IMG/VR virus record: IMGVR_UViG_3300003155_000119 | Span: 1 to 64,000 of that record | Length of the DNA stretch: 64,000 bases | From: a virus | Taxonomy: Duplodnaviria; Caudoviricetes | Direction: 5' to 3' (one strand) | Shown: piece after piece, positions 3,802 to 37,237 of the stretch | Layout: the number at the start of each line of letters is the position of its first letter | Position numbering within the stretch: the stretch's first letter is position 1 | The notes under the pieces: model-generated | Seen by the model: only the letters and a program-made list of their open reading frames with translations | Databases searched by the model: none | Told to the model about the DNA's origin: nothing | Position numbers and translations under genes: made by a program

Positions 3802-3841
3802 ATCCAAGAAAAATATATGATTAAGAAAAGGAGAATAAGAT

Positions 3842-4920: not shown

Positions 4921-4960
4921 GATCAGATAAAAATCTAAAATAAAAAGGAGAAATGGAAAT

Positions 4961-5710: not shown

Positions 5711-5712
5711 TT

Positions 5713-5976
5713 ATGTAGAGCAAAGAATTTGAAGAAAAGTATAGAGAAATAATTCTATCAAATGCGGAATTGAAATCTTTGGCATATGATTTTAATAAAA
5801 GATTCAATAAATATTCAAAATTTACTAGAAGCAAAGTGTTTAAAGAACTTCTTACTGAGGAGGAGTAGAAAAATGCTAAAGCTAGAGCATATAATCTTCT
5901 CTTTGAGAATGAAAAATATGAGAAGTTGTGGTCTGCAATTCACCAAGTGAAAGAAGAATCCGAACAATAGAATTAA
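5713..5976 (+). CDS. hypothetical protein (87 aa) beginning ATG-TAG
   Basis: AAGGAGGT SD; frame open to TAA 5976 if TAG=Gln; terminator at ~5985-6018. Confidence 0.6.
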
Positions 5977-6618: not shown

Positions 6619-6873
6619 TTAATCTACCGTAATTTCAACATCACAAGGAGTTGCGGGGGTATCAACATGAATGTATTCGAGATTGGTTTCTCCGCCATCG
6701 TTGACAGTGAAGCAAAGGATAGAGTCCTCCTCGTTCAGTTTATTAAAAAGACTTGCGTCCATCCATGCGCAAAAGGCAATCCTCCCATCCTCCAAAATGC
6801 AAGCGCTATTGTAATCAAAAATCTCTGCGATAGTGGGCTTCTTTTCTGCATGATTATTAGTAACTTTAACCAC
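6619..6873 (-). CDS. hypothetical early protein
   Basis: AAAGGA SD, GTG start, intact ORF. Confidence 0.6.
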   Translation of the reverse strand: MVKVTNNHAEKKPTIAEIFDYNSACILEDGRIAFCAWMDASLFNKLNEEDSILCFTVNDGGETNLEYIHVDTPATPCDVEITVD

Positions 6874-6947
6874 GATTATTATCCTTTCCTATTGTCTTTA
6901 TAAACAGGGGAGACTATTGCCTCCCCTAATTCCTGTTTGCTATTGGC

Positions 6948-7376
6948 TCACTCCTCTACTTTCGGAGTCCCGTCCTCATTATAATACTTCTCGTCATAAC
7001 CGCGGCCAAAGTAAGCCACGTTCTTCTCATGGGTGCATTTCACCAGACCGCCCTTGCGCGCCTTAATCAGGAGGCTATTCATGTGCTGATTGCTCTTGAT
7101 GCCCTTTGCGGCCAAGTCACCAGCCTCCATCAGCTCCTTAATGGTTGCGGGCTGGCCAATCACGTCCATGGCTTCCAGGATCGCCTGAATCAGCTTTTCA
7201 TTCTCTTCCTGCTTTGCAGTAGTCTTGCGGAGGCTGTTCTTCTTCGCGTCCAGAAGCTCCACCTCGTGGACCATAACTGCTTTCAGTTCCATCTCGTCCT
7301 TCTCGTCCAGAATATCAATAATCATGTTGAAGGCTTCGCGCTTAGTGAGCTTCTTTTCGTTAGTCATGTTAGCCAT
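6948..7376 (-). CDS. small winged-helix-like DNA-binding protein (paralog of 7802-8179)
   Basis: TKRE...T.KQ.EN...SNQ..NSLL...GLVK pattern shared with the neighbour; own promoter and SD. Confidence 0.7.
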   Translation of the reverse strand: MANMTNEKKLTKREAFNMIIDILDEKDEMELKAVMVHEVELLDAKKNSLRKTTAKQEENEKLIQAILEAMDVIGQPATIKELMEAGDLAAKGIKSNQHMNSLLIKARKGGLVKCTHEKNVAYFGRGYDEKYYNEDGTPKVEE

Positions 7377-7801
7377 AGTAGTTACTCCTTTTCATTATTA
7401 CCTTTGTCTATTGTTAAGAGGATTTCCTCTTGACGCTTTTATTATACCACGTTTTGCTTCGCTTGTCAAGTGCTTTTTTTAATTTTCTTATTTATTACCT
7501 CTTTCTCTTATCCCCCTTGGAACATCTATATTATAGCAAATTTTCTGCTTTGCCGCAATAGGTAAAGTACATAAAGAAGTAATAATTTTAGGATTTTTAT
7601 TTGTCTATTTTGCCTCTTGACTTTCGTGCAAAAATATGGTATAATAGAAGGTTATAATAAAAGTCGCCGGCGCACAAATGAAAGCCGGCCGCCCATTATA
7701 CCACATTTCTTTCCTCTTGTCAAGTGAAACTTCTTCATCTGTAGTATGAAATTTTTTCACCTTTGCCGCATAAAAAAAGGAGGGGCGAGCCCCTCCTTGA
7801 A

Positions 7802-8179
7802 TCACTCGTTAACTTCTTCGTTTTCGTTCTCATTGCCAATAGTGAAGAAAGAATCCTTCTTAATCTTAACCCTCTTCACCAGACCCTCCTTGCGAAGCTG
7901 AATCAGCAGACTGTTCAGCTTCTGATTGCTGGCGTCACTCAGGCCTTCCACGTTTGCGGCGATGTCGTTAATGCGTTTAGGCTCACCCTCTGCGGTCAGG
8001 TACGCAACAATACCCTCCTTTAGTGCCGCATTAGCTTCCTGATTTGCGGTAGGCTTACTCTTAGAGTGAGAAGTCTTGCTCAGGCGCTCGACCTCCTTAT
8101 TCACAACCTCCGCCCACTCGGTCTTGCCGCTCTCGGTCAGGAAATTTGCAATCTCAACGAAATATTCACGCTTAGTCAT
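7802..8179 (-). CDS. small winged-helix-like DNA-binding protein (paralog of 6948-7376)
   Basis: MTKREYF...KPTANQEAN...SNQKLNSLLIQLRKEGLVKR; own promoter, SD and terminator. Confidence 0.7.
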   Translation of the reverse strand: MTKREYFVEIANFLTESGKTEWAEVVNKEVERLSKTSHSKSKPTANQEANAALKEGIVAYLTAEGEPKRINDIAANVEGLSDASNQKLNSLLIQLRKEGLVKRVKIKKDSFFTIGNENENEEVNE

Positions 8180-21249: not shown

Positions 21250-24200
21250 ATGACTTTACAAGAGCTAATGAACCTCTCTAAAGAAAAATCTGTTTCCTCG
21301 TAGTTTGCGATAACTGAAGAAAGAATAAATGCTTAGATAGATAATATAAGAAAATTAATCGCTTTCTTTAGAGAGTATCCTGATATATTTATAGATTTTA
21401 TTAAAGGCCCTGATAGCAAATTTAAACTATATAATTATTAGCGAATTATATTAAGGGCGGCAATGCGACACAGGTATGTTTATATGACTTTGCCGCGCGG
21501 TTCATCTAAATCATTTTTGTCAATGCTAATACTAATGTTACGTTGCATTTTGTATCCTGGGTCGGAGATGTTCGTTACGACCGGCGGTGAGACGACTTGC
21601 CGCATAATAATAGCGGAATTAAGCTGGAACCCTGAAATGGGAATCAGAACCGAAGGCTGCAATATTGCGGTCAGGGGCAACGCATAGAAGGTGAAAAGAT
21701 ATAATCCTTCCACGAGGCCGCTACTCTTTTTCTATTGTTTAGAGAAAGATGAAAAGATATGCTGAGCTATTACAAATAGAAAGTAATAGAACTAAAGGAT
21801 AAAAAGCCTTTAGGATAACAATATTGAAGGAACAGGCCGCATCAATTACAATATCGAAAATTGAGCAGTTATGTAGTTTAATTCCTGCTCTTGATAATGA
21901 GCTAAATAGAGAGCGCGGCCAGACGCGAAATTCTACTAAAGATGTTAAATACATATTTAAGAATGGTTCGACTATTGATGTTTTGAGCGCAACCGAAAAG
22001 ACTAGAGGCTAGCGCCGAACGGGCGGTTTGATGGAAGAATGCGTGCTCATAGACTAGACCGCGCTAAATGAAATAATAATCCCCACAACTGTTATTGACC
22101 GACAACTTGCGGACGGGACGCGTTACCCTGATGAAGTAATTAACAAATCTCAGATTTTCATTAATTTTTTGGTCAAAGTTTACTAATTTTTATGAATATA
22201 TCCTTATATATAATATAAAGAGAAATATTATACAGTAAAGGAGATAAATAATGAAATATTATATTTATAAAATAGAAAATTTAATAAATCATAAAGTTTA
22301 TATTGGTTTAACTAATAATATAGAGAGAAGAAGAAATAGACATTTTTCAGATTTAAGACATAATAGACATGATAATCATTTTTTACAAAAAGAGTTTAAT
22401 ATATATGGTGAAGAAAATTTTTCTTTCTCTGTTATCTTTGAAAATGATATTACAGAAAAAGAAATAGGGGATAAAGAAAAATATTATATTAAACAATATG
22501 ATAGTTATAAAAATGGATATAATCAAAATGAAGGAGGCAATTTTGGTGCGTCAAATGGAGGGAGTCATTTGATAGAAAAAGACATATTTGAAATTCTTGC
22601 AGCTATTGAATTTGCTCCAAGCCGCCCTGGTGAAATTCTTTCTTAGATTTTTGGAGTAACAAAAACAACTATTAGCAGAATTAGGAAGAGTGTAAATCAT
22701 ATCTATTATATTGAAGAATATAATAATAAAACGTAGGAAGAAAAAAAATAGATATATCAAGAATTTTGTAAAAGGACTAATTTTGAATAGAAAGTTCTAT
22801 CTTCTACGAAGTTAAGAACAAAAAGAAGAATAAAAGATGAAGATGTTTATTTAATTTTATGTAATTTTGAAAAGAGAATAGTTTCTTTAAATACTCTAAT
22901 GAAATACTTAAATGTAAGTAGTAGTAATACTCTTTATAGTATAAGAAAAGGAGAAAGCTATAAAGATTGTGCAGAACAGTATAAATTATTTACTGACGAC
23001 CAAAAACAAAAGTTAGTGACCTTACTTAGAAATTTGTAAGTGAAAACCCCTTGAATTGCTGGAAAATCTTTTAAAATAGACAATCAGCAGCCAAGCCTCG
23101 AAAAAGAGGAAGGTTCAACGACTATCCTGAAAAGGAGTACATTGTAAGCGATTGACAATGGAAGCAGGGGGCACCCAAATAAGGGTGGTGATATAGTCTA
23201 ATCTCATATGTGAATATGAGCTGCCGTAAGGCGCGTATTAAGTAGCGATTAATACGGAATATAAATGAACGACCGCAGGCTACCGGAACTCGTTTGCGTA
23301 TAAGAAGTTGATTGAACTTTTAGTACAGTCTATACTAAAGCCAGATGAGGTAATGATTCTTGGCGGTACGTATCAGATTCCTGTTGTTGAGGGGTTGCAA
23401 GATGAGAACTGGTTGGATTAGTTAAAACTGCAAGATACATTCAACGAAGATTCGTTTGAACGAGAGTATAAAATAACATTGTACTCTATAAATACAATGA
23501 ATTGCTGGAAAATCCTTAGAGCTTTTCTTACTACAGCACAAATATGAAATATGGTTAATTGCGACAGTGAAAAAAAGGAAAGATTGGACAATCAGCAGCC
23601 GAGTCTCGAATAGAGAAAGGTTCAACGACTATCCAAAAGGAGTACACTGTAAACTGTTGACAGTGGAAGTATTGTACATAGAAGATATAGTCTAATCTCA
23701 TGTGAAAGCATGAGCAGCGAAAGCGCGTATGAAGTAGTGAATCATGCGGAATATAAATGATGAGCAAGTGGACTGGAGATGCCGATGGCGCATTCTACTC
23801 CTCTGAAAAATTTGACCAAGGCCGCGTTCTTAATTTACCAGAGTACGAATATAATAAACATCTATCTAAGTCCTCTTATTACGTTATTGGTGTCGATGTG
23901 GGAAGAATTGGGTTAATAGTTAGCTCAATTAAAATCTCTTTAATTGCTGGGAAGTCCTAACATCAAAGATGAGGGTAATCAGCAGCCAAGCTCTGAAAAA
24001 GAGAAGGTTCAACGACTATCCTGAAAAGGAGTAGATTTAAGTGAATCGAAAAGGGAGATTTCTGAAAAGAAAAAGATATAGTCTAATCTCATATGAAAGT
24101 ATGAGCAGTTCATAAGAGAACGCACATAGATTAACGACCTATGTGGAATGCAAATGGTACGACTGAGGCTTGCGTCTTCAAAGTCACTCCTCTAGCTCAG

Positions 24201-24860
24201 GGCGGCACGGTGAAGAGTCTAGTAAACATATATACTTATAAAGCGGAACATTTTGAAACACAAGCTATTAATTTAAAGCGGCTATTCTTTTAGTATCGCG
24301 CTCGGACCATCGCTTTGGATGCGAATGGCCTGGGGGTGGGACTAGTTGATTTTATGGTAAAACCGCAAACAGACCCCGAAACAGGCGAGGTATTTCCTTC
24401 TTTTGGCGTCTTAAATGATGATGATGGACTTTACCGAAAATATAAAACGATTGACACCGTTGCCGATGCAATGTATTTAATTAAAGCTAATGCGCCGATT
24501 AACACGGAAGCTTACTCTTATGCTCAAGTCCAAATGGCGAGTGGACGCATTAAATTTTTAATAGACGAGGCCGCGGCAAAAGTAAAATTAATGTCAACGC
24601 GGCATGGTCAAAATATGAACGCAGATGAAAGAAATGAATATTTAAAGCCTTTCGTTCAAACTTCCATACTTAGAGAGCAAATTTTGAATCTAGTACAATC
24701 TAATGAAGGAGTTAATATTATCTTAAAGCAGTCTTCAAGAGGAATACCTAAAGATAAATTCTCTGCGTTCATCTATGGATTGTATTATATAAAGAAGGAA
24801 GAAGAAAGGAAGAAAAAGCGTTCTAACTTTGATATTTCTGATTTGCTATTGTTTAATTAA
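21250..24860 (+). CDS. terL: terminase large subunit, 5 exons (21250-21588, 21827-22161, 23268-23469, 23760-23913, 24157-24860; 577 aa)
   Basis: Spliced product has Q motif LYNY(TAG)R, Walker A PRGSSKS, Walker B GLMEE, motif III ITTAG, FEREYMSKW, RNase H VIGVDVGR and KDKFSA. Confidence 0.9.
21589..21826 (+). mobile_element. group I intron TerL-i1 (238 nt, variant P7 GCAUA/UAUGC)
   Basis: Exon ends U, intron ends G; IGS GCCGC pairs with GCGGU; joins TTGG|KEQAA in frame. Confidence 0.8.
22162..23267 (+). mobile_element. group I intron TerL-i2 carrying a GIY-YIG homing endonuclease
   Basis: Core motifs AATTGCTGGAA, AATCAGCAG, TCAACGACTA, GATATAGTC; restores QIFI|TTAGY. Confidence 0.85.
22251..23039 (+). 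CDS. GIY-YIG homing endonuclease (262 aa, 4 TAG)
   Basis: YYIYKIEN...VYIGLT...R...H...E...GYN motifs. Confidence 0.85.
23470..23759 (+). mobile_element. group I intron TerL-i3 (290 nt)
   Basis: Core motifs; IGS GUACUCU pairs with AGAGUAU; restores FEREY|MSKW. Confidence 0.85.
23914..24156 (+). mobile_element. group I intron TerL-i4 (243 nt)
   Basis: Core motifs; IGS GCUCAAUU; restores DVGRIG-C-TTEAC. Confidence 0.85.
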
Positions 24861-24951
24861 AAATTTTTGGGCAAAAGAGATAAAGGAATATTATGAATAA
24901 ATTAATTATAATAAAGGATTTGATGATTCAATCAAGGAGGTGATTAATTGA

Positions 24952-25318
24952 ATGAGGTCTAGTAGAGGAGAAATTAAAATAGAAGAAATTCTGCAAGCCG
25001 CAGGATTAGATTTTCAAGAGGAATACAGTTTTCCAGATTTAACAACTAATACAGGAAGACCTCTTCGATAGCCGATTTGATTTTGCAGTATTTGATGATT
25101 GCGGCAAGTTAGATTTTTTAATTGAATTTTAGGGGATTTAGCATTATCAGCCGAAAGATAAGTTTGGTGGAGTTGCTGGTTTGCGGAAATAGCAGTATAA
25201 TGATATGTAGAAACGCATCTACTGTAAGAAACACGGAATTCCGCTTGTCTTAATTCCATACTACGATTAGAATCGCGTTAATTATGATTACATAATGAAA
25301 GCCGCGGGGTATTGCTAA
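24952..25318 (+). pseudogene. PD-(D/E)XK / Vsr-like endonuclease with a frameshift at 25069-25075
   Basis: SRGE..IEEIL...EEYSFPDL...PLR, then FDFAVF...IEFQGIQHY in the +1 frame. Confidence 0.65.
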
Positions 25319-25350
25319 ATATTAAGATATTAGAAAGGAGGGAATGACTT

Positions 25351-26898
25351 ATTAAAAATAGGATGGACGAGATAAAGAAAAAAGGATTCGATATGACACC
25401 AGATTCCTTTTAGTATTAGTCTCAAGATTTTAGTAAAATTAGAATCGGATAGAAAAACGTCGAGGATGCAATACTGAATCTTAGTGACTTTAAGCGTACT
25501 GATTCAAGACTAGGAGATAAAACAACTATATTGAATGCCATAAAAAATAATGATTAGCGGCTAATGAGAGAAATATCTAGCTTTTTTTATAGAACGAGTG
25601 GTATTTATAATCGGTTATGCAGGTATATGGCTTATATGTACAGATATGATTGGATGATAACTCCTTATATTAATTCAGAATCAATTAAAGAAGAAAAAAT
25701 CCTTGATGGTTTTAACAAAGCACTAGCTTATTTGGATAATTTTTGTGTAAAGAAATTTTTAGGAGAAGTTGCATTAAAGGTTATCAAGAATGGTTCTTAT
25801 TATGGTTACGTCATTAAATATTAGGATAGAGCTATTGTTTAGGAACTACCACCTAATTATTCGCGGTCAAGATTTGTTGCAGCGAATGGAACTCCTTTGA
25901 TAGAATTCAACATGAGATTTTTTGATGAAACATTTAGAGATACAAATTAGAGAATAAAAATGATTAATGCTTTTCCTGAAGAATTTAGAAAAGGATATAT
26001 ATTATATAAAAAAGGTTAGTTACCTCCTCAGTTTGCAGGAGATATATCTGGATGGTACTTGCTTGATTCTAATAATACTATAAAATTTAATTTAAATAAT
26101 GAAGATTATCCTCCTTTTATTGCAGTTATTCCAAAAATTATTGACTTAGATAACGCTCAAGGGCTAGACCGCAAAAAGATGCAATAGTAGCTACTGAAAT
26201 TAATTATTCAAAAGATGCCAATAGATAAAAATGGAGATTTAATATTTGATGTGGATGAAGCTAGATAGTTGCACTTGAATGCAAAATAGATGTTAGCTTA
26301 GACTATTGGATTAGATGTATTGACTACTTTTGCGGATATTTCGGTTGAGGACTTAGCTGATAATGTCACTACAACTTCAGCTGATGAACTAGAAAAGGTT
26401 GAGAGAACAGTTTATAACGAAGCTGGTGTTTCGCAAATGCAATTTAATACAGATGGCAACATAGCTCTTGAAAAATCTACTTTAAATGACGAAGCTGCTT
26501 TGTATAATTTAATTCAATAGTTTGAAAACTTCTTAAATTATTTATTAGAACCTTTTAATAAGAATCCTAAAAAGATTTATTATAAGGCATCTATACTAGG
26601 TACGACTATTTATAATTATAAAGAGTTATCTAAATTATATAAAGAATAGACGCAAATGGGCTATTCAAAAATATTACCATAGTTAGCTCTTGGACAATCA
26701 TAGAGTTCAATATTAGCGAATGCTTATTTCGAGAACACTATATTAGACTTGGTTCATGTTTTTATCCCTCCAATGACGTCTAATACTATGAATGCAGAGA
26801 GTTTAAGTTAGGTGAGTGGAAAAGAAAGCGGTCGGCCAGAAAAAGAAAATGATTAGAAATCTGAAAAAACTATTTAGAATAAAGAATCTGCAAGTTAA
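25351..26898 (+). CDS. portal protein (~515 aa; ATT start at 25351 or ATG at 25363)
   Basis: Long TAG-read-through frame after TerL and before protease and capsid; size and position. Confidence 0.75.
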
Positions 26899-26915
26899 AG
26901 GAGAGTGAAATAAAG

Positions 26916-28175
26916 ATGGTACATCAGTCAGTATCAGTCATAAAAGAACCAGAGTTTATCAATCTTTCTCCTAACGATATAAATCCATTGGTCTCTAACT
27001 GTTAGATAAAAGTTCTATATGTAGGAGAAAATAGAAATAGAAGCTACATCTCTAAGGAAGTTGCTGAAGATATGGCGAAATCTCTTAGAGGAACTCCTAT
27101 TGTTGGATACTATGTAGAAGATAAGAAAGACTTCGGCGATCATGGGGAGCAATTAGTTATAGATGGAGAAGGATTTCATTTTAATACATTGACTAAACCT
27201 TATGGGTTTGTTGCGCCTGATGCAAAGGTATGGTTCTAGGACTTTGAAGACATGGATGAGCGCGGAATAAAAACTGTTAGAACCTATTTAGTTACAGATG
27301 GCTATTTATGGACAGGACAATTTGAAGAATGTCGTAGTTTATTAACGAATGCAAAAAGCCAATCAATGGAGCTAGATAGTGAAACTTTAAATGGCGAATG
27401 GTCAAATGCGGTTAATAATAATTATGAACTTTTTATTATTAATGACGCAATATTTTCAAAGTTATGTATTTTAGGTGACGATGTAGAGCCTTGCTTTGAA
27501 GGAGCTAGCATTGCGCCTAAAGCATATAATTTAGATTTTCAAAAGACTTTATTCTCTATGGTGAAAGATTTACAAGAGATAAAGTCAGAAGGGAGAGCAA
27601 ATAGTATGAACACTGAAATTAATGAAAACAATGATTTAAATGCTGCGGCAAGTGCAGCAGAATCTGCTGCCGCAACTACTTTTACTGAAAACACTGAAAA
27701 AATCGAAAATAATCAAGAAAATTTGGGCAAAGCTAATCAAGAGGAATCGCCTAAAAATGAAAATACAATAACAGCGGAACAATTTTCTTTGTTAAGCCAA
27801 GAGTATGAAGATTTAAAGAATAAGAATGCGGAACTGCAAGAAAAATATTCTAAGTTAGAGCAAGACTATTCTGAGCTTTTGACTTTTAAGAAGAATGTTG
27901 AAAACGAAAAGAAAGACGAACTAATTAAGAGTTTTTATATGCTTTCTAATGAAGATAAGAAAGACGTTATGGAGAATAAAGAGAAGTATTCTCTAGATGA
28001 AATAGAAGCAAAACTTTCTGTTGTTTGCTTTAGAAAGAAAATTAATTTCGCCTCTGAGAAGGAAGAGGCCGAAGGAGAGCCAGCCGCGCCCGTTACTTAC
28101 TCACTACAGGACGAGACTGAAGATGTTCCAGCTTGGTTAAATTCTATCAGAGACGCACATAATAAAAATAAGTGA
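26916..28175 (+). CDS. prohead protease / scaffold fusion (419 aa)
   Basis: KVLYVGENRN...PIVG...DH...QSME...LCILG.DVEPCFEG protease-like domain followed by a coiled coil. Confidence 0.75.
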
Positions 28176-28202
28176 TTAAATACGAAAGGATGACATACTA
28201 GT

Positions 28203-28778
28203 ATGAAGAGAGTTGGATTCGGGCAAGTAGAAGCTAATCACTTGTCTGCACAGAGAACTGGTCAAATTTATGCACAGCTTCCAGCTAAGAATGATATTAA
28301 TTTACTGGAAAATGGTCAGTTCGTTAAATATAATTATGCTGATGGAGTTGTTGACTTCGAAGGCGAAGGCGAGTGGATGCTCGTTTATAACGAAGTTAAG
28401 TTATACGATGCGCCCTGGAGAGAGTCTTATAAAGATTTTGCTATGATTAAGGATAATTATACTCCAGGTAGCGATTCTATTACCCATGATGGACTTGGTC
28501 CTTTTAAGGGTCAAATGACTCCTCGCTTATTCAAGACTAATATTGGCGATATTTTTACGACTAACTGCTTAGAAAAAGCTAATACAAGCGGCAAGGCAGA
28601 AGTTACTTTAACAGATTTAACTGTTGGTGATGTAGTTGCTCCTACCAAAACAAATGGTTACTTAAAAAAGAGCGACAGTGGTACTACTACAGATGACACC
28701 GTTATGAAGTGGCAGGTAGTTAAACTCACCACAATGCCAGACGGCCAGGCCGCAGTCAAATTAATGAGAATACTGTAA
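28203..28778 (+). CDS. head decoration / capsid-associated protein
   Basis: Position between scaffold and capsid; ends TMPDGQAAVK; no TAG. Confidence 0.6.
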   Translation: MKRVGFGQVEANHLSAQRTGQIYAQLPAKNDINLLENGQFVKYNYADGVVDFEGEGEWMLVYNEVKLYDAPWRESYKDFAMIKDNYTPGSDSITHDGLGPFKGQMTPRLFKTNIGDIFTTNCLEKANTSGKAEVTLTDLTVGDVVAPTKTNGYLKKSDSGTTTDDTVMKWQVVKLTTMPDGQAAVKLMRIL

Positions 28779-28803
28779 TTGGGGAAAGGAGGAAAATTTG
28801 ATT

Positions 28804-29829
28804 ATGGCTTTAAATAAGAAAGATTTAATTACCCTAGGTAAAATGGCTGCTAATGCAGATTCTTCTTCTCCTGTTGCTTATTCTTTTGGTGAAGAGAAAT
28901 ATAGTTATGAAGATTTAAATAATGCTTTTAGAGCACAATTAAAAGAGATTGCTGGGACACCTGCTCTGTATAGAGAAAATAAAAATCTTGTATTTGAATT
29001 AATGGAAGAAATTATTGATGATGTTCTTCCTAAGAAAGTTTTAGATCAATACAGTCAGTTTGCGGAAATTAAGACTTATGCTCAGGGAGACCGGCCTGTA
29101 TTTACTCAGAGAATTACAGCTGCGGCTCGGAGACGTGCAAAGCAATTCATTACTAAAGTTGGTTTAGCTGGTAAGTACGAGGTCTTCAAGCTGGATGGAC
29201 GGAGCTATGAAGTTCCTACTAGCGCATTCGGTGGAGCTGCCCAGATTAGTATTGAAGAATATCTGGATGGCCGCATCGACATGGCAGACGTACTAGATAT
29301 TGTGATGGAAGGTCTAGATGAGGCTATTTATCTTGAGATTGAGCGTGCTTTAGTTGCGGCAGTAACCGATTTACCCGCTGCAAATCAAACTGTTCAAACC
29401 TCTTTTGATGAAGACGAAATGGATAAGTTAATTTCCATTGCTGATTCTTATGGTCAGTCTACTATTTACTGCACATACGAGTTCGCCGCCACAATGGTTC
29501 CTTCTGAAGGCTGGATTTCTGATAATATGAAAGACCAAAAGTGGAATAACGGATACCTAGCTAATTATAAGGGCCACAGAGTGATTGTTTTACCTCAATC
29601 CTACGAGGATGAGACCAATGCTAAGAAAGTTATTGACCCGTCTTATGCTTGGATTATTCCTACTGGCGCGGAAAAACCAGTTAAAGTTGCTTTTGAAGGT
29701 CAGACTATGGTGCGTGAATTTGAGAACCACGATTGGTCAAGAGAATTTCAAATTTATAAAAAGGTTGGCGTTGGCGCTATTTTCACCAACAATATTTGCG
29801 TCTATCAGAATACCTCTTTAACTAGATAA
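28804..29829 (+). CDS. major capsid protein
   Basis: 341 aa, strong SD, biased codon use, followed by a terminator, canonical position. Confidence 0.8.
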   Translation: MALNKKDLITLGKMAANADSSSPVAYSFGEEKYSYEDLNNAFRAQLKEIAGTPALYRENKNLVFELMEEIIDDVLPKKVLDQYSQFAEIKTYAQGDRPVFTQRITAAARRRAKQFITKVGLAGKYEVFKLDGRSYEVPTSAFGGAAQISIEEYLDGRIDMADVLDIVMEGLDEAIYLEIERALVAAVTDLPAANQTVQTSFDEDEMDKLISIADSYGQSTIYCTYEFAATMVPSEGWISDNMKDQKWNNGYLANYKGHRVIVLPQSYEDETNAKKVIDPSYAWIIPTGAEKPVKVAFEGQTMVREFENHDWSREFQIYKKVGVGAIFTNNICVYQNTSLTR

Positions 29830-29840
29830 TTTTATTGAGT

Positions 29841-29869
29841 GAGAGGAAAATTATTTCCTCTCCTTTTTT
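29841..29869 (+). terminator. rho-independent terminator after the capsid gene
   Basis: GAGAGGAAA/TTTCCTCTC hairpin plus U-tract. Confidence 0.75.
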
Positions 29870-29902
29870 ATAATACGGAGATAAAAGGAGTAAATAATTT
29901 AT

Positions 29903-30484
29903 ATGATTGAAAATAACGAAGTTATTAAAGTAAAAAATCGCGGAGCTTGTTCTGCTGGTTATAAGATTCCAGAGGATAGAATTGTTAGGAAGTTTGCGCC
30001 AAATGAGGAAAAAGAAATAACGATGGGCGAATTGAGAAAGCTTTCTTTCCAGCCTGGTGGGCAGTATTTGATTGAAAATTGCTTAATTATTGAAAATGAG
30101 CACGCAGTAAAAGAATTAATGCACCAAGTGGAGCCAGAATATTTTTATACAGACAAAGAAGTACAAGCAATACTTGAAAGAGGAACAATGTCTCAGTTTT
30201 TAGATTGTTTAGATTTCGCGCCGCAAGGAGTAATTGATATAATCAAAAAAGTAGCTGTTCAAATTAAATTAAATGATGTTGCTAAAAGACAAGCGATTAA
30301 AGACAAAACTGGCTTTGATGTAACAAAAGCAATCGAAATTAGCGAAGAGACTGAAGTGTTCGAAGATGCTATTCCAAGTGGTAGACGCACTGCCGCACCA
30401 GATTTTTCAACGACAGAGACTAAGCCAGAAAAGAAAAGACGTGAACCTATTTTGGCTAATTATGAAGTGATTATTAAGGAGTGA
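29903..30484 (+). CDS. hypothetical virion-module protein
   Basis: Intact ORF with SD. Confidence 0.7.
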   Translation: MIENNEVIKVKNRGACSAGYKIPEDRIVRKFAPNEEKEITMGELRKLSFQPGGQYLIENCLIIENEHAVKELMHQVEPEYFYTDKEVQAILERGTMSQFLDCLDFAPQGVIDIIKKVAVQIKLNDVAKRQAIKDKTGFDVTKAIEISEETEVFEDAIPSGRRTAAPDFSTTETKPEKKRREPILANYEVIIKE

Positions 30485-30490
30485 TGAAAG

Positions 30491-31299
30491 ATGGCCACTA
30501 CACCATTTTCACTCATTTATGATTTATTTTTATCTAAGATAACAGATGACCTTTATTTAGAATTAACAGAATTAGATACTTATCGCCTTTTATAGGATTT
30601 GCTCTTGTCCGCAATACCAAAATTTGAATTCCCAAGAAAACCGCTAGACGATTATAATTTGCAAGATGTAATTGATGTAGGCACTTATAATGGTGTAGAA
30701 AGTAATTCTGAGGACTGGGAATTGCTTATATATGGGCAAGGACAATTTAATGTTTTATTAACAGACGAAGAAATGAATATATTAGCTACTTACATGATAG
30801 TTGAATGGATTGGCTAGTAGTTAGCTAGTATAGAAAATACGCGAATGAAGTATTCAGGGTGAAGAATCTCGCCCCGTATATAAGAAATTATATAATGAAA
30901 ATTTTAGTAAAAAACTGGAACCCTGAGATGGGAATCAGAGCGGAAGTTAGATTTTAAAAGATTTAACACGCGCAGAGCATAGGATTATTAAACAATAAAG
31001 AATTTTTATTGAAATATAAATCCCACGAGACTAAAACATCTGAAAAGATGAAAAGATATGCCGAACTTACAAGAAAAAGAATTGTAAGAAGTAAAGATAA
31101 AAAACTTTACGATAACATATTTGAGGATTTTAAATTCACAAGCTAGGCCAATCATATGTAGAAACTAGTTACAGTTAAAAAAGAGTATGAGCGCGAAGGC
31201 TTTCATCTCCAAAGACTGTATAAACGCAGAGCGAAAGATAAAGATGGAATACCTCGTTCTACTTTCGGCGTAATTATGTACGGAGACCATTGGGCATGA
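30491..31299 (+). CDS. putative head-tail connector/neck protein, 2 exons (30491-30860, 31124-31299)
   Basis: Splicing joins MKYSG-(T|AG)-DFKFTSQANH; position after the capsid. Confidence 0.7.
30861..31123 (+). mobile_element. group I intron in the neck gene (263 nt, variant P7)
   Basis: Shares CTGGAACCCTGA.ATGGGAATCAGA, AAGATGAAAAGATATGC and GATAACA..TTG with TerL-i1; U and G at the boundaries. Confidence 0.8.
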
Positions 31300-31643
31300 G
31301 AGAGTTGTATGTTGAAAAAGATATAATTATAAATATGCTAAAGAAAAGACTTAATCTTATTTATAAATTATTACCGACAAGAGAAGAAAAATCTGATTGG
31401 GGTAAATTACTTTCTACTATTGTTGAAGAATTATCTGGATTATATATAATGTTTAATTCAGAAGAATTAAAGTATAATTTATTTATTATTATATGTAAAT
31501 TAGAAGGGCTTAATTCATTAGCCGAGCCAGATGATTTTTTTGATTATCGCCGCATAATATTTGAAGTTCTTAACTTAACTCAATAGTTAATAGATTTAGT
31601 TGACGAGAAATGTCAGGACTAGATTCCCTTAAAACTAGAATGA
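31296..31643 (+). CDS. hypothetical protein
   Basis: ATGA overlap with the upstream stop; TAG read-through to TGA. Confidence 0.6.
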
Positions 31644-32692
31644 GTTATTATGGCGGAAGTAATCAAGAGATAAGAATGTAGAAAGATAAATTAAGGTCTT
31701 TGCGCAAAGCGCTATTATATTCATATTAGTCTGTTACTATTGCTTTACCAGATGAAGAAGGAAATTTTTCTGAGTAGAGCCAAAAATTTAGAGCATTAAT
31801 AAATCCAGATAAAAATAAAAGCGATTATGATGATAAAATACTTTCAATTCCTTACGAGGACATCTGTTTGAATGATGCGGCGGGCGGCGTCAAAACGTCA
31901 GAGGGGCTGACTAAAATAGACATTAAGCCAGGTTCTGTATTCGAATGGGTTGAAACAAAGACAAAATGGTTAGTATATCTGCAATTTTTAGAAGAAGATG
32001 CCTATTTCCGCGCTGAGATTAGGCGCTGTGATTAGCAGACTCAAGTAGGGGATAAAAAATATTGGACTTATATACGCGGTCCAATGGAAACGTCTATCTA
32101 GTGGAATCAAAAAGGCGGTATTGAGTGGAATGACTTGAATTATTCTCTAGTTATGTACATTACTAAAGACGAATATACATCTGATTATTTTCATAGATTC
32201 AATTTAGTGAAAGTACAAGAGCCAGATACAGATGTACAGAAAACTTGGCAAGTGGTTGCGGTCAATCCCTATTACGGGGACGGAATTATACAAGTTTATC
32301 TGGACGAGTATTTTGAAAATACTATAGAGGAGACTGGGAAAGAGCCTGAGCCAGAACCGCCGGTGATTGACCCTAGTTCCATCTATATAGAGGGACCCGA
32401 TACTGCGGCCGCATATGATGAGGTTGTTTGTACTATTGTCAATGCCGCGGATGGGACTTGGGAAGCTATTTTAAAAGAAAGAGTTTATTCTGTTAAAGAT
32501 TTAGAGGCAAATACTGATAAGAGTAATAATGATACTTGGGTTCCTGTTCAAAAGACAGACGAGCTTGAATTAGCAAGAATTGATGATTATTCAATAAAGA
32601 TTTTCCTAAATATTTCTAGTGGTTCTATTGTTGTGAATTATTTAGGAGAAGATGATGGAATTCTTGCTTCAAAAACTATTACCGTGAAATAA
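31610..32692 (+). CDS. putative head-closure/neck protein (360 aa)
   Basis: Continuous frame through TAGs into ORF 32135; position. Confidence 0.65.
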
Positions 32693-32720
32693 AAAGAGAT
32701 AAAAGGAGATTTTAATTTTT

Positions 32721-33308
32721 ATGAAAGTAGATTTAGCTATGAAAAAGATAGATTTTAGTACATCTTTTCTCTCTTGTGAAAAAGATGCTGAATCTATTTT
32801 AAGAAAATTATTTATAGAAAGTAGACCTTATAGTGATTATTTAAAGCGTCTATTGGTTATTAATACAAAAGATTGCCTAGATAATTTAGATAATGAAGTC
32901 TATAATAAAAAAATTACTGAAATGACTTTGCCTAAATTGATAGAGGATGGTTATATAAAATTGGCACCTAAGATAAAAATGCCTGAACATGAAGAAATAA
33001 AATCTTATATTATCATTACTTTTGATGATTTTACTCAAACGTCAAATAATGAATTCAGAGATTGCACTATCAACTTTCATGTTCTAAGTCATACTGACTA
33101 TTGGGACTTAGGTAAATATAGATTGCGGCCAGTGAGAATTGTTGGTTATATAGACGGAATACTAAATAAAGCAAAGTTATCAGGAATTGGACGATTAGAA
33201 TTTTTAAGTTGCAGTTAGTTAGTATTAGACGAAACTCTATCTGGATATGTACTTAGCTATAGAGCGGTTCATGGTTCAGATGATAAAATAGAACAAGTGA
33301 ATGAATAA
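32721..33308 (+). CDS. putative tail-completion/terminator protein
   Basis: ORF extended through TAG 33216-33218; position before the tail tube. Confidence 0.6.
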
Positions 33309-34041
33309 TAAATTATTATTCTAGTCAAATAATGATATTCCTTTTCTTGAAGCAAAAGTTGTTGTGCATTAGCCAACTATAAAAGAAATTGCTCTTATTG
33401 GAGAAGATATTTTCTTCAGAGGGAGTGAGCTATTAACTTTATCTAAAGAAAATATTCCGAATGTGGGCAAAAATGATTTAAAGGGTTTTAGTAATTTTGA
33501 TATAATTATGTCAGTTATAAATAATAAAGATTTGAGTTCATAGAAAGAAAAAATAAATCTATTATTAACTTTGTCTCTTTTATTTCCTGATTATAAAATA
33601 AAATTATCTAATAGCTAGATAATTTTGACAAAAGATGAAAAAGAATTTTTTATTAATTCGTCTAATCACGAGTCTTTCAAGAAACTTTTAATACAAATGC
33701 TTTGTCTAGATTATAATAAGAAAGATGATAAAAAATATAATCCAGCAAATGGTAAAGCTGCGGAAATAGCAGAAAAAATAAGAAAAGGCAAATAGAAAGT
33801 AAACTAGTTAAAAAATAATAAATAGAATCAAGATATTCATATTTTATTATAGTATGTTTCTATTTTGTCTGTTGGTTTATAGAAAGATAAGAATTAGTTA
33901 ATGGAATATACAATTCCTCAACTTTATGACGAATATAAAAGATTTGAAATGAAATATTAGTATGATATGTACGTTCAACAGAAAATGCTTGGAGCAAAAA
34001 ATCTCAAAGAGATAAAATTCTGGATGGATGATATATATTAA
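33301..34041 (+). CDS. hypothetical tail-module protein (246 aa, TAG-rich)
   Basis: Open only if TAG=Gln; absent from the ORF track. Confidence 0.65.
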
Positions 34042-34088
34042 AATTTATTAAATTAATTTAATAACTTTTTTAAGGAGGAAAAAATCTT

Positions 34089-37000
34089 ATGAAATTTGGC
34101 GTGAAACTAAATTAAGTCTTGCGCTTATATACCTTATCCTAATACCATAGGGGTTCTTAAATAAGAGCTAACGGGGAATGGGTGTCAATGTCACCAGAAT
34201 CCCGTGTCATGGCCGCAAGGCAGCGATGTAGAGACTAGAATATATTCGTAGGTTTGCTATTGGTACGCAAATCGAAACAGGTATAGGTGCGGTTTAAGGT
34301 CTGGCCGCATTTAAGAGATAGTCCATAGTTAATACTATGAAGAGAAATATGTAATGTTGTATTCCGTGCTAAATCTCCTATGAAGATTGGCAAGACAACA
34401 TTCCAAACTGGACAACCAGTTATTATGCTTGATACTGCAACTGCTTCCACTCTGGAAGGCGCTGCAACGACAGTCTACGCGCAGGGTTAAAAATAGCTCC
34501 ATATATAAGTGATTATATATGAAAACTGCTCTAATTGCTGGAAACTCTTATAAAAAATATAAGACAATCAGCAGCGAAGTAATTAAGAATAAAATATTTT
34601 GGGAGGCATATTGATTATGTTATTACAAATTAATTAGTTTATTCCTGAAGTAAAAGACCGTTATTTCATTTGTGACAATGGCGATTTATTTACTGATTTT
34701 GGTCAAAGAAAAATGAAAAATAGTACAAAAAATGGATATGTAAAGAACTCATTAGTCTTAAAAGATGGAACATCTAAATCATTTTTTAGACACCGTCTAG
34801 TTATGTTATGCTTTTGTCCCAACGAAAAAGCAAATGAATTACAAGTAAATCATATAGACGGAAATAAAGAAAATAATAGTATAGAAAATTTAGAATGGTG
34901 TACTAATCAAGAGAATAGAATTCATGCTGTAAAAATAGGACTTGCCGCGAGATTAATCGGTGAAGAAAATCCTGCTAGTAAATTAAAGGAAGAAGATGTG
35001 CTAGATATTATAAATGATTTATTAAATCATATTCCTTATTCTCAAATAATGAAAAAATATGAATGTTCTAAAAGTACTATTTCATCAATAAAGAATAAAA
35101 GAAACTGGTCTTATTTGACTAAAGATATTGATTTTAATTAAACGTTCAACGACTATCCTTTATGGAGTAGATTACAAGCTATTGGTAATTGAAATGGGCA
35201 GTCTCTCTTGGCGAGAGAAAGATATAGTCTAATCTCATATGTGAATATGAGCTGTCGAAAGACGCATATAGTGTAGCGAACTATATGGAATATTAATGGG
35301 ACGCGGAAATGTTCGTTTAATTGCGTGGGATGAAAAGAAAATTACTCACCGGCTCACGAATCTTAGTAATAAGATAAAGAAAAATCTCGTGAATTGCTGG
35401 GACACCCAAAATCATTTTGGGCAATCAGCAGCCAAGGGGCGCATATAAAATAAATGCGTTCAAGGTTCAACGACTATCCTTTATGGAGTAGGGCTAAGCG
35501 GCCCGAAGCGCGAGACTCCTATTTTTAGGATGAAGATATAGTCTCATCTAAGTGGATATATAAAGACTTAGTAGTTCATTAGAGAACACATAGAAATTAG
35601 CGACTTCTATGGAAGATACACTCGTTATGAGGTGAGAAAACATTAACCTTCACCGTCACCGATGCTCTTCTCAGCGCTACTGGATTTGCAATCCTGTCTG
35701 GCGCTGGATTAATTACACAAAATACTGGAACTAAAGTTCACTATCATGTAACAACTAATACAACTTGTGCAGCTACTGAAATTGATTTAACTGATGCTCT
35801 CACACCTTTTGGCACAGGTGCTCAAATTTGTGATACTGCACCTATTTATGTCATTGAAACAGAAGCAGATGGTTCTATCACTGGAACTTTCTTAACTAAC
35901 GTAACTGTTGACGTGGGTGGAAAGAAATTAAAGGGTACCTTTACAGCGGGTAAAGCTGTCACTGTTGACTATTATGTGCTAGTCGATGGTGCTGGTATTG
36001 ACGAAATTCAGATTGATGCTGAGAACTTCGCAGGATACTTCTATGTAGAAGCGGATACTTTATTCCGTCGGCAGTCTGACGGTGTTGACCTGCCCTGCAA
36101 CATCACTCTACCTAACGTTAAGATTCAGTCTAACTTCACCTTCTCTATGGCTTCAACTGGAGATCCAAGTGAACTAATGCGCTTGGCGGCTTAAATAAAA
36201 GCTGAAAAATTTAGTTCTTTAATTGCGGGAAAACCCTTAGAGCTTTTACAACTAAAGCAATATAGAAATATATTGACTGGCGAGGGTAATGACTAAGGTA
36301 TAGTAAAATCGTAAAAGATTGGGTAATCCGCAGCAAAGATTTCGTATTTGACTTTTTATAAAATATAAGATATAATTAAAATAAAAAAAGGAGAAATGAA
36401 AGAGTGGAAAAACGTATACATGACTTCATTCCAGAAATAAAAGATTATTATACAATTACTTCAGATGGATTAATATACAGTGATAATTCTGGATTAATGA
36501 AAACTAGAGATAGAGCAGGAACTGACTATCAAATAATTAATTTAAGCAAATTAGACGGAAGTAAAAGGACTTTTAGGGTTCACCGTTTAGTAATGATGGC
36601 TTTCAATCCTGTTAAAAATATGAATGAATTAGAAGTAAATCATATAGATGGAAATAAAAAAAATAATAAATTAGAAAATCTTGAATGGTGTACTGCTAGT
36701 GAAAATCAAATTCATGCTTTTAAAACTGGACTAAATAAACCAAGAAAAGGAGAAGAAAGCAATCTCTCTAAATTGACTGAAGATGATGTAAAAAAAGTAT
36801 TTGAGTTAAGAGAAAAAGGTCTTTTACAAAAAGAAATTGCTGAAATAGTTGGATGTACAAAAAGTAATATATCTTGTATTTTAAGAAAAAAGTCTTGGAA
36901 GAAATAATGTTCAACGACTATCCTTTATGGAGTAGCTCTAAGTAGAGCGAAATGGGAACTTAAAAGATATAGTCTCAACTATACTGAAAAGTATAGCAGT

Positions 37001-37237
37001 TCATAAAGAACGCATATAGATTAACGACCTATATGGAAGATATTGACATTCGATTTCACAATGGACGCCTTCCCTGGCGTTACTTATTTCAATCCTGGAC
37101 GGCAAGTTTTGTGCGCAATGCAGGTGTTGAATAACTACAACGCTGGTGCGGATACTATTGAATCTGTATTCTTACATGATGATGCTGAAGTTATTGCGGA
37201 GGCAGAGAACGATTCTGCGGAAGGCGCCGGAGGTTAA
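34089..37237 (+). CDS. major tail tube protein, 5 exons (34089-34102, 34340-34487, 35299-35330/1, 35630/1-36170, 37046-37237; ~308 aa)
   Basis: Spliced MKFGVREICNVVF...YAQGGRGNVRLIAW(E/D)GEKTLTF...IQSNFTFSMASTGDPSTFDFTMDAFP; strong SD; terminator after it. Confidence 0.8.
34103..34339 (+). mobile_element. group I intron tube-i1 (237 nt)
   Basis: AGAGACTA / GATAGTCC P7; IGS GCGC with P10 UCUU; only 14 nt of exon upstream. Confidence 0.8.
34488..35298 (+). mobile_element. group I intron tube-i2 with an HNH endonuclease
   Basis: Core motifs flank the ORF; restores YAQG|GRGN. Confidence 0.85.
34617..35141 (+). CDS. HNH homing endonuclease
   Basis: HRLV...VNHIDGNKENN...NLEW.T..EN..H; one TAG near the N-terminus. 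Confidence 0.85.
35331..35630 (+). mobile_element. group I intron tube-i3 (~299 nt; one junction non-canonical)
   Basis: Core motifs; P10 CUCACC pairs with GGUGAG; frame requires either A at the 5' site or a terminal A. Confidence 0.75.
36171..37045 (+). mobile_element. group I intron tube-i4 with an HNH endonuclease
   Basis: IGS GCUUGG pairs with CCAAGU; restores GDPS|TFDF. Confidence 0.85.
36404..36907 (+). CDS. HNH homing endonuclease with C-terminal HTH
   Basis: VHRLV...VNHIDGNKKNN.LENLEW; own sigma-A promoter TTGACT-N17-TATAAT at 36348-36376. Confidence 0.85.
   Translation: MEKRIHDFIPEIKDYYTITSDGLIYSDNSGLMKTRDRAGTDYQIINLSKLDGSKRTFRVHRLVMMAFNPVKNMNELEVNHIDGNKKNNKLENLEWCTASENQIHAFKTGLNKPRKGEESNLSKLTEDDVKKVFELREKGLLQKEIAEIVGCTKSNISCILRKKSWKK

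Follow-up and report, generated by a model that had tools for sequence, protein, structure and literature searches.

The window, a 64,000-nt stretch of DNA, belongs to the 113.8-kb IMG/VR record of an uncultured chicken-gut phage, whose lineage is akin to phAss-1, Enterococcus H1 and Geobacillus E3 and does not belong to the Crassvirales. In the late genes of this phage TAG is a sense codon, the portal gene alone containing 20 in-frame TAG triplets. The earlier note on this DNA was silent on TAG; the fragments of the split genes make sense only with TAG as a sense codon. Three late genes in a 16-kb block, encoding TerL, a head-tail ("neck") protein and the tail tube, lie in 12 pieces separated by nine introns, which take up about 27% of the block. 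Intron boundaries were set by combining alignment to uninterrupted homologues, the rule that U stands at position -1 and G at the last intron base, and exon-exon joints found in contigs of related strains. The TerL gene is made up of five exons and four introns (T1 to T4), the exons being collinear with the TerL proteins of Geobacillus E3 and Enterococcus H1:

21250 to 21588, + strand: TerL exon 1, 339 nt (collinear with E3 and H1 TerL)
21589 to 21826, + strand: intron T1, class B, without ORF, 238 nt (U at -1, last base G)
21827 to 22161, + strand: TerL exon 2, 335 nt (collinear with E3 and H1 TerL; homologue alignment)
22162 to 23267, + strand: intron T2, class A, with ORF, 1106 nt (RF00028, 92.2 bits)
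22251 to 23039, + strand: putative GIY-YIG homing-endonuclease ORF inside T2, 262 aa, 4 TAG codons (PF01541, E=3e-11)
23268 to 23469, + strand: TerL exon 3, 202 nt (collinear with E3 and H1 TerL; homologue alignment)
23470 to 23759, + strand: intron T3, class A, without ORF, 290 nt (RF00028, 59.8 bits)
23760 to 23913, + strand: TerL exon 4, 154 nt (collinear with E3 and H1 TerL; homologue alignment)
23914 to 24156, + strand: intron T4, class A, without ORF, 243 nt (RF00028, 83.1 bits; U.G pair at U23913)
24157 to 24860, + strand: TerL exon 5, 704 nt (collinear with E3 and H1 TerL; full-length homologue alignment)

The junction between exon 1 and T1 was scored against six intron-less homologues, and a contig of sequencing run X15 terminates at 21588. 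If TAG is read through, no stop closes the exon frame over the first 174 nt of T1, so that ribosomes could disturb the folding of this intron. The ribozyme core of T2 occupies 23005-23267, and the PF01541 match of its ORF covers the whole profile. A relative's contig joins 22149 to 23275. U is found at -1 of T2. Its candidate guide, the 7-nt GUGAAAA, sits on the far side of the ORF, some 880 nt 3' of the 5' splice site; P1 of this intron is uncertain, and GUGAAAA could match by chance. For T3 the Rfam alignment places a U.G pair in P1 at U23469. Excision of T4 creates the codon T^GT (the caret marking the splice junction) and the product GRIG-C-TTE, identical to the intron-less homologues.

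The neck gene is split once, by intron N1:

30491 to 30860, + strand: neck gene exon 1, 370 nt (phrog_3853; homologue of Enterococcus phage H1 gene 69)
30861 to 31123, + strand: intron N1, class B, without ORF, 263 nt (U at -1, last base G)
31124 to 31299, + strand: neck gene exon 2, 176 nt (homology)

In run X17, one contig connects 30859 and 31125, two letters standing between them. An orthologue of N1, present in another phage stretch (L030), is 92% identical and has the same U^AG junction codon.

The tail-tube gene lies between the head-tail genes and a 2921-aa tape-measure ORF. PF27173 (YomU_Tube, the Atlas name) is precomputed on all 120 homologues listed for an intron-less orthologue. 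The gene comprises five exons (14, 148, 32, 541 and 192 nt) and introns TT1 to TT4:

34089 to 34102, + strand: tail-tube exon 1, 14 nt, ATGAAATTTGGCGT (contigs join 34102 to 34340)
34103 to 34339, + strand: intron TT1, class C, without ORF, 237 nt (covariation; no Rfam match)
34340 to 34487, + strand: tail-tube exon 2, 148 nt (homologue alignment)
34488 to 35298, + strand: intron TT2, class A, with ORF, 811 nt (partial RF00028 matches at 34536-34621 and 35147-35251)
34599 to 35141, + strand: putative HNH endonuclease ORF in the P6 region of TT2, 180 aa, 1 TAG codon (PF13392, HNH_3, E=3.5e-11)
35299 to 35330, + strand: tail-tube exon 3, 32 nt, or 33 nt if the 5' splice site follows U35331 (homologue match)
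35331 to 35629, + strand: intron TT3, class A, without ORF, 299 nt (RF00028, 81.9 bits; ends not both canonical)
35630 to 36170, + strand: tail-tube exon 4, 541 nt (phrog_2729; homologue alignment)
36171 to 37045, + strand: intron TT4, class A, with ORF, 875 nt (U at -1, last base G)
36404 to 36907, + strand: putative HNH endonuclease ORF inside TT4, 167 aa, no TAG codon (PF13392, HNH_3, E=9.5e-12)
37046 to 37237, + strand: tail-tube exon 5, 192 nt including the stop codon (homologue alignment)

The two very short exons proposed in the earlier note (14 and 32 nt) were borne out: exon 1 joined to exon 2 encodes MKFGVREIC, exactly the N-terminus of the intron-less homologues, and exon 3 encodes GRGNVRLIAW(E/D), matching the 11 codons that 68 intron-less relatives have between exons 2 and 4. 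TT2 is missing from contigs that join 34487 to 35299. Removal of TT4, whose 3' half scores 31.8 bits with RF00028, gives GDPS^TFDFTMDAFPG, in agreement with homologues.

Excision of all nine segments yields ORFs of 577 aa (TerL), 181 aa (neck) and 308 aa (tail tube), with no internal TAA or TGA and with full-length alignment to uninterrupted homologues at 61-68% identity. The nine intervening segments are thus real and lie where the earlier note had put them or within a few bases, and its counts of four, one and four per gene agree with the homologue alignments and the related-strain joints; so does its tally of six introns without an ORF (T1, T3, T4, N1, TT1 and TT3) and three with an endonuclease ORF. 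Fragmentation itself is the one feature that might point to pseudogenes or to an assembly chimera. Since the exons are intact and conserved, full-length ORFs are restored and the same structure recurs in contigs from independent chicken-gut studies, we give such an explanation practically no weight.

At eight of the nine best-fit junctions, scored against 6-8 uninterrupted homologues, U at -1 is combined with a final G of the intron. A terminal G (omega-G) is found in all nine introns with the boundaries given above, in TT3 only by giving up U at -1. The 3' ends of the six class A introns read AUG or UUG, and U at -1 together with a G-containing guide was found for T1, T3, T4, N1, TT1, TT2 and TT4.

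Cleavage of the 5' splice site after the U of a U.G wobble pair is nearly universal among group I introns. In TT3, keeping both U at -1 and the terminal G would delete two conserved codons, intron-less alleles reading TGG GAA/GAG GGx at this site. If the terminal G is at 35629, as the family-wide AUG ending implies, the 5' splice site must follow A35330, and the cut then restores W-E-G-E-K as in every intron-less allele. The guide sequence, CUCACC-GG-CUCACG, pairs with both exon ends; with G as the last intron base, the base at -1 is A, opposite G. An orthologue of TT3 (in L259) has the same ambiguity at its ends and keeps the A-opposite-G mismatch, whereas the pair next to it has become U-A instead of U.G; this is what one would expect if cleavage were marked by the mismatch and not by the U. 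It is conceivable, at somewhat less than even odds, that TT3 is a natural group I intron predicted to cleave after an A opposite G. TT3 would then break the U.G rule for 5' splice sites, in a way that can be tested.

The introns fall into three unrelated sequence classes: A (T2, T3, T4, TT2, TT3 and TT4), B (T1 and N1) and C (TT1). The near-identical core segments noticed earlier exist only as short stretches of 18-33 nt (94-100% identity); over 80-240 nt the class A introns are 67-85% identical to one another. At the Rfam gathering threshold for RF00028 (50 bits), the covariance model recognised T2, T3, T4 and TT3 (60-92 bits); TT2 and TT4, whose cores are split by ORFs, gave partial matches below threshold (29-32 bits). 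T1, N1 and TT1 gave no Rfam match of any kind, also when short stretches were scanned at E<=10. The Rfam alignments show core helices P3-P9 in class A, along with a 31-38-nt insertion after the 5' strand of P7 that would make these introns IA-like. Like the phage T4 introns, they probably have additional helices in the interval from P7 to the 3' strand of P3, which is a hallmark of IA, and they have endonuclease ORFs in peripheral loops. The T4 introns (td, nrdB and sunY), of subgroup IA2, reside in nucleotide-metabolism genes, one per gene, whereas here late genes hold up to four each.

For the two classes that RF00028 misses, evidence comes from covariation. A hand-drawn class B fold (P3, P4, P5, P6, P6a, P7, P7.1, P8, P9 and P9.1), evaluated on 23 sequences, has 86% of cells paired, with 46 of 60 pairs changed on both sides and P3 paired in 100%; none of 500 shuffles reached the real value, and slid controls gave 28-45%. 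The class C fold, evaluated on eight TT1 orthologues at the same site, has 95% of cells paired, and both partners change in 37 of its 71 pairs. Its P1 shows a compensatory change from C-G to U-A between exon nucleotide 12 and the guide sequence, and the classic R and S elements are present as GUAGAGACUA and AAGAGAUAGUCC. In both classes covarying hairpins directly follow the 5' strand of P7. P7 itself is invariant within each class and differs between classes in a compensatory manner (GACUA/UAGUC versus GCAUA/UAUGC).

The silence of RF00028, the unusual class B P7 (the GCAUA/UAUGC version) and the off-textbook layout of class C, in which two hairpins separate the 5' strand of P3 from P4, might indicate that T1, N1 and TT1 are degenerate or protein-dependent, or some other intervening RNA, and thus not autonomous group I ribozymes. 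We think this quite unlikely. Strong covariation backs a group I topology with its P3/P7 pseudoknot arrangement, a terminal G and a U.G pair in P1 are present, and the exons are restored exactly. Moreover, both classes are widespread in IMG/VR, the class B motif occurring in 76 stretches and the TT1 R...S pair in more than 111. The assignment of all nine introns to group I, as the earlier note had proposed, is therefore supported, by RF00028 for class A (partial and sub-threshold for TT2 and TT4) and by covariation for T1, N1 and TT1.

Homologues from relatives lend further weight. Intron-less homologues align at the predicted junctions: from exon 2 to exon 5, 68 of 81 relatives' tube genes are uninterrupted, and some 10 of 25 TerL genes are intron-less at the sites described here. 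At T2, N1, TT1, TT2 and TT3 the exons are joined exactly in contigs of strains 90-95% identical; those joints that occur in "RNA" libraries come from such relatives and could be carried-over intron-less DNA. A DNA run from a closer strain (X3, 97-99% identical) contains a single 11.4-kb contig that spans T3, T4, N1 and TT1, and has ORF-less versions of the three introns with ORFs: T2 minus 22213-22972, TT2 minus 34584-35119 and TT4 minus 36340-36904, the last found also in run X19. The arrangement is thus not a product of assembly, and the ORFs prove to be insertions into peripheral loops, separable from the introns.

Orthologous introns also occupy the same sites in other phages. The T1 site is filled in three further stretches (L012, L018 and L019), and the TT1 site, after nucleotide 14 of the tube gene, in at least eight other contigs. 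Much of the intron load has thus been inherited, or exchanged among relatives, and did not arise in this genome. Nor are introns limited to the morphogenesis block: a tenth, of class B, interrupts an AAA_24 ATPase gene within its Walker A motif, in the other arm (genome positions 90916-91152). These results bear on the idea of the earlier note that introns proliferated locally, possibly moved in trans by the three resident endonucleases. The paralogy of the six class A introns, which lie in two genes and have cores 67-85% identical, is in keeping with it, as is the 82% identity over 110 nt between the HNH ORFs of TT2 and TT4. In addition, T4 and TT2 have in common the exon end GGGU^ and the guide UAGCUC, and N1 and TT2 the target CAGGGU^. 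However, three unrelated classes are involved, the orthologues elsewhere mean that many insertions are older than this genome, and further introns lie 55-65 kb away in the other arm. Homing endonucleases recognise long exon targets, yet the nine insertion targets are unlike one another beyond 4-6 nt, and short guide-matched targets suit reverse splicing equally; the GGGU^ target with its matching guides would fit reverse splicing or relaxed homing equally well. Local proliferation is supported in part; multiplication within this genome with the resident endonucleases acting in trans is, in our opinion, unlikely.

The earlier note had also suggested an added layer of late-gene control. In a more specific reading, some or all of the introns might have acquired a role as a gate on late proteins, for timing or quality: TT1, for example, would couple tube synthesis to RNA folding, and at N1 an in-frame UGA would become the sense codon UAG only after splicing. 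Conservation of TT1 at one position in at least eight phages together with its 14-nt exon, and of the U^AG codon of N1 here and in L030, would accord with such a role, as would the in-frame TAA or TGA that lies no more than 75 nt past the 5' splice site in seven of nine introns and at the splice site itself in N1 and TT2. But early in-frame stops are the usual device by which introns of protein genes keep ribosomes off the ribozyme (PMC3984707), and most relatives do without these introns, which are hence dispensable. Co-option as such a gate seems very unlikely.

We consider it highly probable (roughly 85%) that the nine segments are genuine group I introns of three classes, self-removing and selfish, and that the three late genes they occupy are those of a siphovirus-like phage of the chicken gut with recoded TAG. 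Late transcripts would be made with the introns in place; each intron would fold into a group I core, with P1 formed with the 5' exon, P3-P9 and a guanosine pocket in P7, and remove itself by two transesterifications. Such splicing would restore TerL, the head-tail protein and the YomU-type tail-tube protein. The sequences show the anatomy, the exact recovery of the ORFs, the conserved folds and, among related strains, the presence or absence of both introns and endonuclease ORFs; self-splicing, endonuclease activity and the route of spread are inferred. As selfish mobile elements, the introns would be spread into intron-less alleles of co-infecting relatives by the three predicted endonucleases (one GIY-YIG, two HNH), while the six ORF-less introns may persist because splicing leaves them nearly neutral.

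The view that phage group I introns reside mostly in DNA-metabolism genes, few per gene, is dated: introns in TerL, capsid and tail genes have been published, including four in one capsid gene (PMC7886860, PMC3706429, PMC11878797, PMC12880540). The TerL genes of Bastillevirinae (PMC11878797) and Jug phages (PMC12880540) are likewise split, by two or three group I introns, mostly IA, with HNH and GIY-YIG ORFs in loops and a ribozyme signature sometimes missing on one side of the ORF; there, no gene has more than three introns, whereas here two genes have four each. Cluster J mycobacteriophages, which are large siphoviruses, also have group I introns in capsid and tail genes, spliced in late expression; those are single introns with splicing demonstrated by RT-PCR, while the present ones are predicted from sequence (PMC3706429). 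In Staphylococcus phage Twort, orf142 is described as a late gene with three group I introns, a 23-nt exon lying between two similar IA2 introns, and with exon skipping (PMC10136302). The tail-tube gene is similar in having multiple introns and a micro-exon, of 32 nt, flanked by the similar IA-like introns TT2 and TT3; it differs in that four tube and four TerL introns, of three classes and three with endonuclease ORFs, are predicted here. The Zeta/Delta crAss-like phages (Yutin et al.) offer a further parallel as gut phages with stop-codon recoding in late genes and dense group I introns in structural genes, four in one of them; they represent a different lineage from the phAss-1/H1/E3 kin. 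Four-intron structural genes of recoded gut phages are thus already published, and the present case, real and extreme, is of the same kind as in other gut phages and leaves the known mechanism unchanged.

The closest published relatives of this lineage have been described without mention of introns, which the phAss-1 paper nowhere brings up. For annotation, recoding and nine introns together cause gene callers to overlook three essential virion genes. Of the nine introns, three escape the standard Rfam model, as does at least one elsewhere in the genome; their families number dozens to hundreds of copies in phage metagenomes, so that surveys based on RF00028 undercount introns. The near-identical chicken-gut strains, which vary in the introns and endonuclease ORFs they possess, provide a natural series for intron gain, endonuclease invasion and loss.

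The earlier note had proposed nine group I introns in this phage, four in TerL, one in the neck gene and four in the tail-tube gene, and this count is borne out by the junctions, the restored ORFs and the contigs of relatives. The genes are read with a recoded TAG. Under translation table 11, TAG is the sole codon interrupting the late genes on the plus strand; the portal gene carries 20 in-frame TAGs and no other stop. With TAG as glutamine, the block reads as an ordinary late operon of siphovirus type, running from TerL through portal, protease/scaffold, capsid and head-tail genes to the tube and a tape-measure ORF of 2921 aa. Between 18900 and 64000 on the plus strand of the window, sense TAG codons number 20 in the portal gene, 88 in the tape-measure ORF and 7 in TerL; the capsid gene (28798-29829), the genes at 28203-28778 and 29903-30484 and the spliced tube gene are free of TAG, and none of the late genes seen in this interval requires it as a stop. 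Neither the window nor the 113.8-kb IMG/VR virus record yielded a tRNA gene, suppressor tRNA included, an absence that says little because the record, of which the window is the first 64 kb, is only about 73% complete by estimate. Since GenBank phages gave no megablast match to the 17-kb block, relatives were reached solely at the protein level: phage phAss-1 (classified under "Caudoviricetes code 15 clade"), two human faecal scaffolds, Geobacillus E3, Alicyclobacillus KKP_3916 and Enterococcus phages of the H1/EF1 type. Public runs containing this DNA come from about ten studies of chicken-gut metagenomes.

The uninterrupted TerL proteins of E3 and H1 align with five collinear pieces on the window. 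To place the TerL junctions, every donor/acceptor pair around each gap was scored against six TerL proteins without interruption, taken from IMG/VR and GenBank and 63-67% identical; the junctions that scored best or tied for best also have U preceding the intron and G as its final base. The nine introns are:

21589-21826, plus strand, T1, first TerL intron (junction scan, six homologues)
22162-23267, plus strand, T2, second TerL intron (junction scan, six homologues)
23470-23759, plus strand, T3, third TerL intron (junction scan, six homologues)
23914-24156, plus strand, T4, fourth TerL intron (junction scan; codon U/GU formed by the splice)
30861-31123, plus strand, N1, splits the neck gene
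34103-34339, plus strand, TT1, tube gene intron
34488-35298, plus strand, TT2, tube gene intron
35331-35629, plus strand, TT3, tube gene intron
36171-37045, plus strand, TT4, tube gene intron

Spliced at T4, TerL reads GRIG-C-TTE, identical to the homologues; GRIG-W-NANG and GRIG-L-NANG were ruled out, the homologues having GRIGC-TTE. A splice of T3 after A23472 was likewise rejected, as the Rfam P1 places the U.G pair at U23469. With TAG read as glutamine, the frame of TerL exon 1 stays open for 174 nt into T1 (21589-21765), through P3-P8; under the standard code it would end at a TAG at +96. The eight other introns reach TAA or TGA within 115 nt.

The neck gene is a homologue of H1 gene 69 (phrog_3853). 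Removal of N1 creates the junction codon U/AG, a recoded sense codon, as it does in the orthologous intron of a related phage, L030 (window 30857-30862, 31122-31126). Unspliced RNA would have UGA here and UAA in L030; intron-less relatives have ACG. Exon 1 of the tube gene is a mere 14 nt, ATGAAATTTGGCGT, and together with exon 2 it encodes MKFGVREIC, the N-terminus of uninterrupted homologues. Spliced in silico, the three genes give ORFs of 577, 181 and 308 aa that are devoid of TAA and TGA and align with homologues over their full length. The introns total 4362 nt; their share of the locus is 52% for TerL and 71% for the tube gene. AlphaFold models of six tube homologues (pLDDT 55) were set aside for fold search, and a PDB sequence search with tube exon 4 found nothing.

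Between TerL and portal lies a 500-nt spacer (24861-25362) with only short ORF pieces in overlapping frames (e.g. 24952-25071 and 25043-25132). A Pfam search of it gave no match, and contig comparison showed that small insertions and deletions distinguish relatives there. The spacer may be a decayed free-standing gene.

Presence and absence of the introns were checked in relatives, and intron-less homologues and contigs align at the junctions. Among 81 tube genes of relatives, 68 are uninterrupted from exon 2 to exon 5, and the remaining ones have one or two introns at or adjoining the TT3 and TT4 sites. Among 25 relatives, about 10 have an uninterrupted TerL, and in the rest it contains from one to at least five introns. 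One relative (IMGVR_UViG_3300035522_000076) has TerL in at least six pieces, hence at least five introns (positions 1660-7977 of its stretch L028), and, on the same contig (stretch L097), a tube gene with an intron at the TT4 site. Contigs of four runs, three RNA libraries and one DNA run, were placed on the block. Those of the RNA libraries represent strains 90-95% identical, pieces of 7-41 kb among them, and contain exact exon joints for T2 (22149/23275, with 19 letters between), N1 (30859/31125 plus AC), TT1 (34102/34340), TT2 (34487/35299) and TT3 (35330, then A GGT GAA AAA...). These joints show the existence of intron-less forms and not splicing in this phage, because the contigs come from other strains and perhaps from carried-over DNA. 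The DNA run, from chicken gut (97-99% identical), provides a single 11.4-kb contig spanning T3, T4, N1 and TT1. In this run T2, TT2 and TT4 are present without their ORFs (skips 22212/22973, 34583/35120 and 36339/36905), and TerL exon 2 has an additional insert of 235 nt (window 22009-22025). The arrangement is therefore real DNA, and introns and ORFs are separately polymorphic. Neither differences in depth nor contigs ending at exon borders (21588, 23470, 34102) were counted as evidence.

By sequence the introns fall into three classes. Class A comprises T2, T3, T4, TT2, TT3 and TT4, with 67-85% core identity, a common P4 motif (AAUUGCUGG), AUG or UUG at the end and a subgroup IA-like insertion after P7. 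The group I model RF00028 scores above threshold for T2, T3, T4 and TT3; it also picks up TT2 in both halves and TT4 in its 3' half. Rfam has no match for T1 and N1 (class B) or TT1 (class C); short stretches around T1 and TT1 lacked a group I match under permissive filters too, and none of nine loci with TT1-like elements was recognised. For these two classes the group I fold is supported by covariation. The 23-nt P4-P5 motif of class B occurs in 76 IMG/VR stretches. When a hand-drawn group I fold was applied to an alignment of 23 ORF-less copies, 86% of cells were paired (slid controls, 28-45%) and 46 of 60 pairs showed changes on both sides; P3 was 100% paired, with all five of its pairs covarying. 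P7 is GCAUA/UAUGC in class B, versus GACUA/UAGUC in class A. Class C has eight orthologues, all inserted after nt 14 of a tube gene. Its consensus fold, P7 included, is 95% paired with both-side changes in 37 of 71 pairs, among them the pair of exon nt 12 with the guide sequence, which goes from C-G to U-A. The class has classic R and S elements and, unusually, two hairpins between the P3 5' strand and P4. The pattern GCAGCGRYGTAGAGACTA retrieved only 5 stretches; with a looser R...S pattern, the pair was found in more than 111 phage contigs.

The ends of TT3 are irregular. The end of exon 3 (CGUGGG) and the start of exon 4 (GGUGAG) both pair with the TT3 guide sequence, CUCACC-GG-CUCACG. Taking U35331 and G35629 jointly as splice-site bases breaks the frame. 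An intron with both ends canonical (U35331...G35636) was ruled out, as the conserved G-E would be deleted. The reading favoured on comparative grounds is that A35330 precedes the cleavage site and G35629 is the last intron base: every intron-less allele encodes W-E-G-E-K, the 3' ends of the class A family are ...AUG, and the TT3 orthologue in a related phage (stretch L259) retains the A-opposite-G mismatch while the adjacent pair has gone from U.G to U-A. The tube gene of that relative (L259:2720-3090) contains orthologues of TT1 and TT3 and then a further class A intron some 9-10 nt downstream, leaving a micro-exon of about AGGTGAAAA.

Three introns carry endonuclease ORFs. The one in T2 specifies a GIY-YIG protein of 262 aa and includes four TAG codons; those in TT2 and TT4 specify HNH_3 proteins, the first 180 aa long with one TAG, the second 167 aa long and free of TAG. 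The HNH ORFs are sited in the P6 region, and the GIY-YIG ORF lies between the T2 5' splice site and the core. If the candidate GUGAAAA (23040-23046) is the guide sequence, this ORF would sit within the loop of P1; a match of 7 nt in a stretch of 1.1 kb could, however, be due to chance.

Sequence profiles of the three classes were searched over the whole record. A tenth intron, of class B, 237 nt long and ORF-less, was found on the minus strand at 90916-91152 (L298:2417-2653). It has U at -1, ends in G and interrupts an AAA_24 ATPase gene of the replication arm within the Walker A motif (GGP/KVGKT). Rfam missed it and thus undercounts the introns of this genome. A weak class C-like match (nhmmer E=7e-7) on the minus strand at 99019-99219 (L299:2520-2720) falls within the 354 nt between gyrA and a gyrB ORF without its C-terminal domain, and may be another intron near the gyrB 3' end. 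These elements beyond the block indicate that the intron load is not specific to morphogenesis genes. The suggestion of local proliferation with mobilisation in trans by the endonucleases is only partly supported: the 67-85% likeness of the six class A introns speaks for it, but the load extends beyond the morphogenesis genes. That splicing adds a layer of late-gene control is a conjecture of the earlier note.

Comparable loads are on record. Three group I introns interrupt Twort orf142, which also has a 23-nt exon and shows exon skipping (PMC10136302). In Zeta crAss-like phages a genome may contain as many as 14 introns, the MCP gene is in five fragments and late genes are recoded (PMC7886860); in Bastillevirinae the TerL and DNA polymerase genes each have at most three introns (PMC11878797). 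The mean for Jug phages is 18.5 introns per genome, and metatranscriptomes show splicing (PMC12880540); capsid and tail introns of cluster J mycobacteriophages are spliced (PMC3706429). For phAss-1, which is related to this lineage, the published description nowhere mentions introns. The mechanism is ordinary for group I introns, and the present set is a rather extreme case of an already known phenomenon, whose notable details are two intron classes unseen by Rfam, a 5' splice site that probably departs from the canonical form and a UAG codon that arises by splicing.
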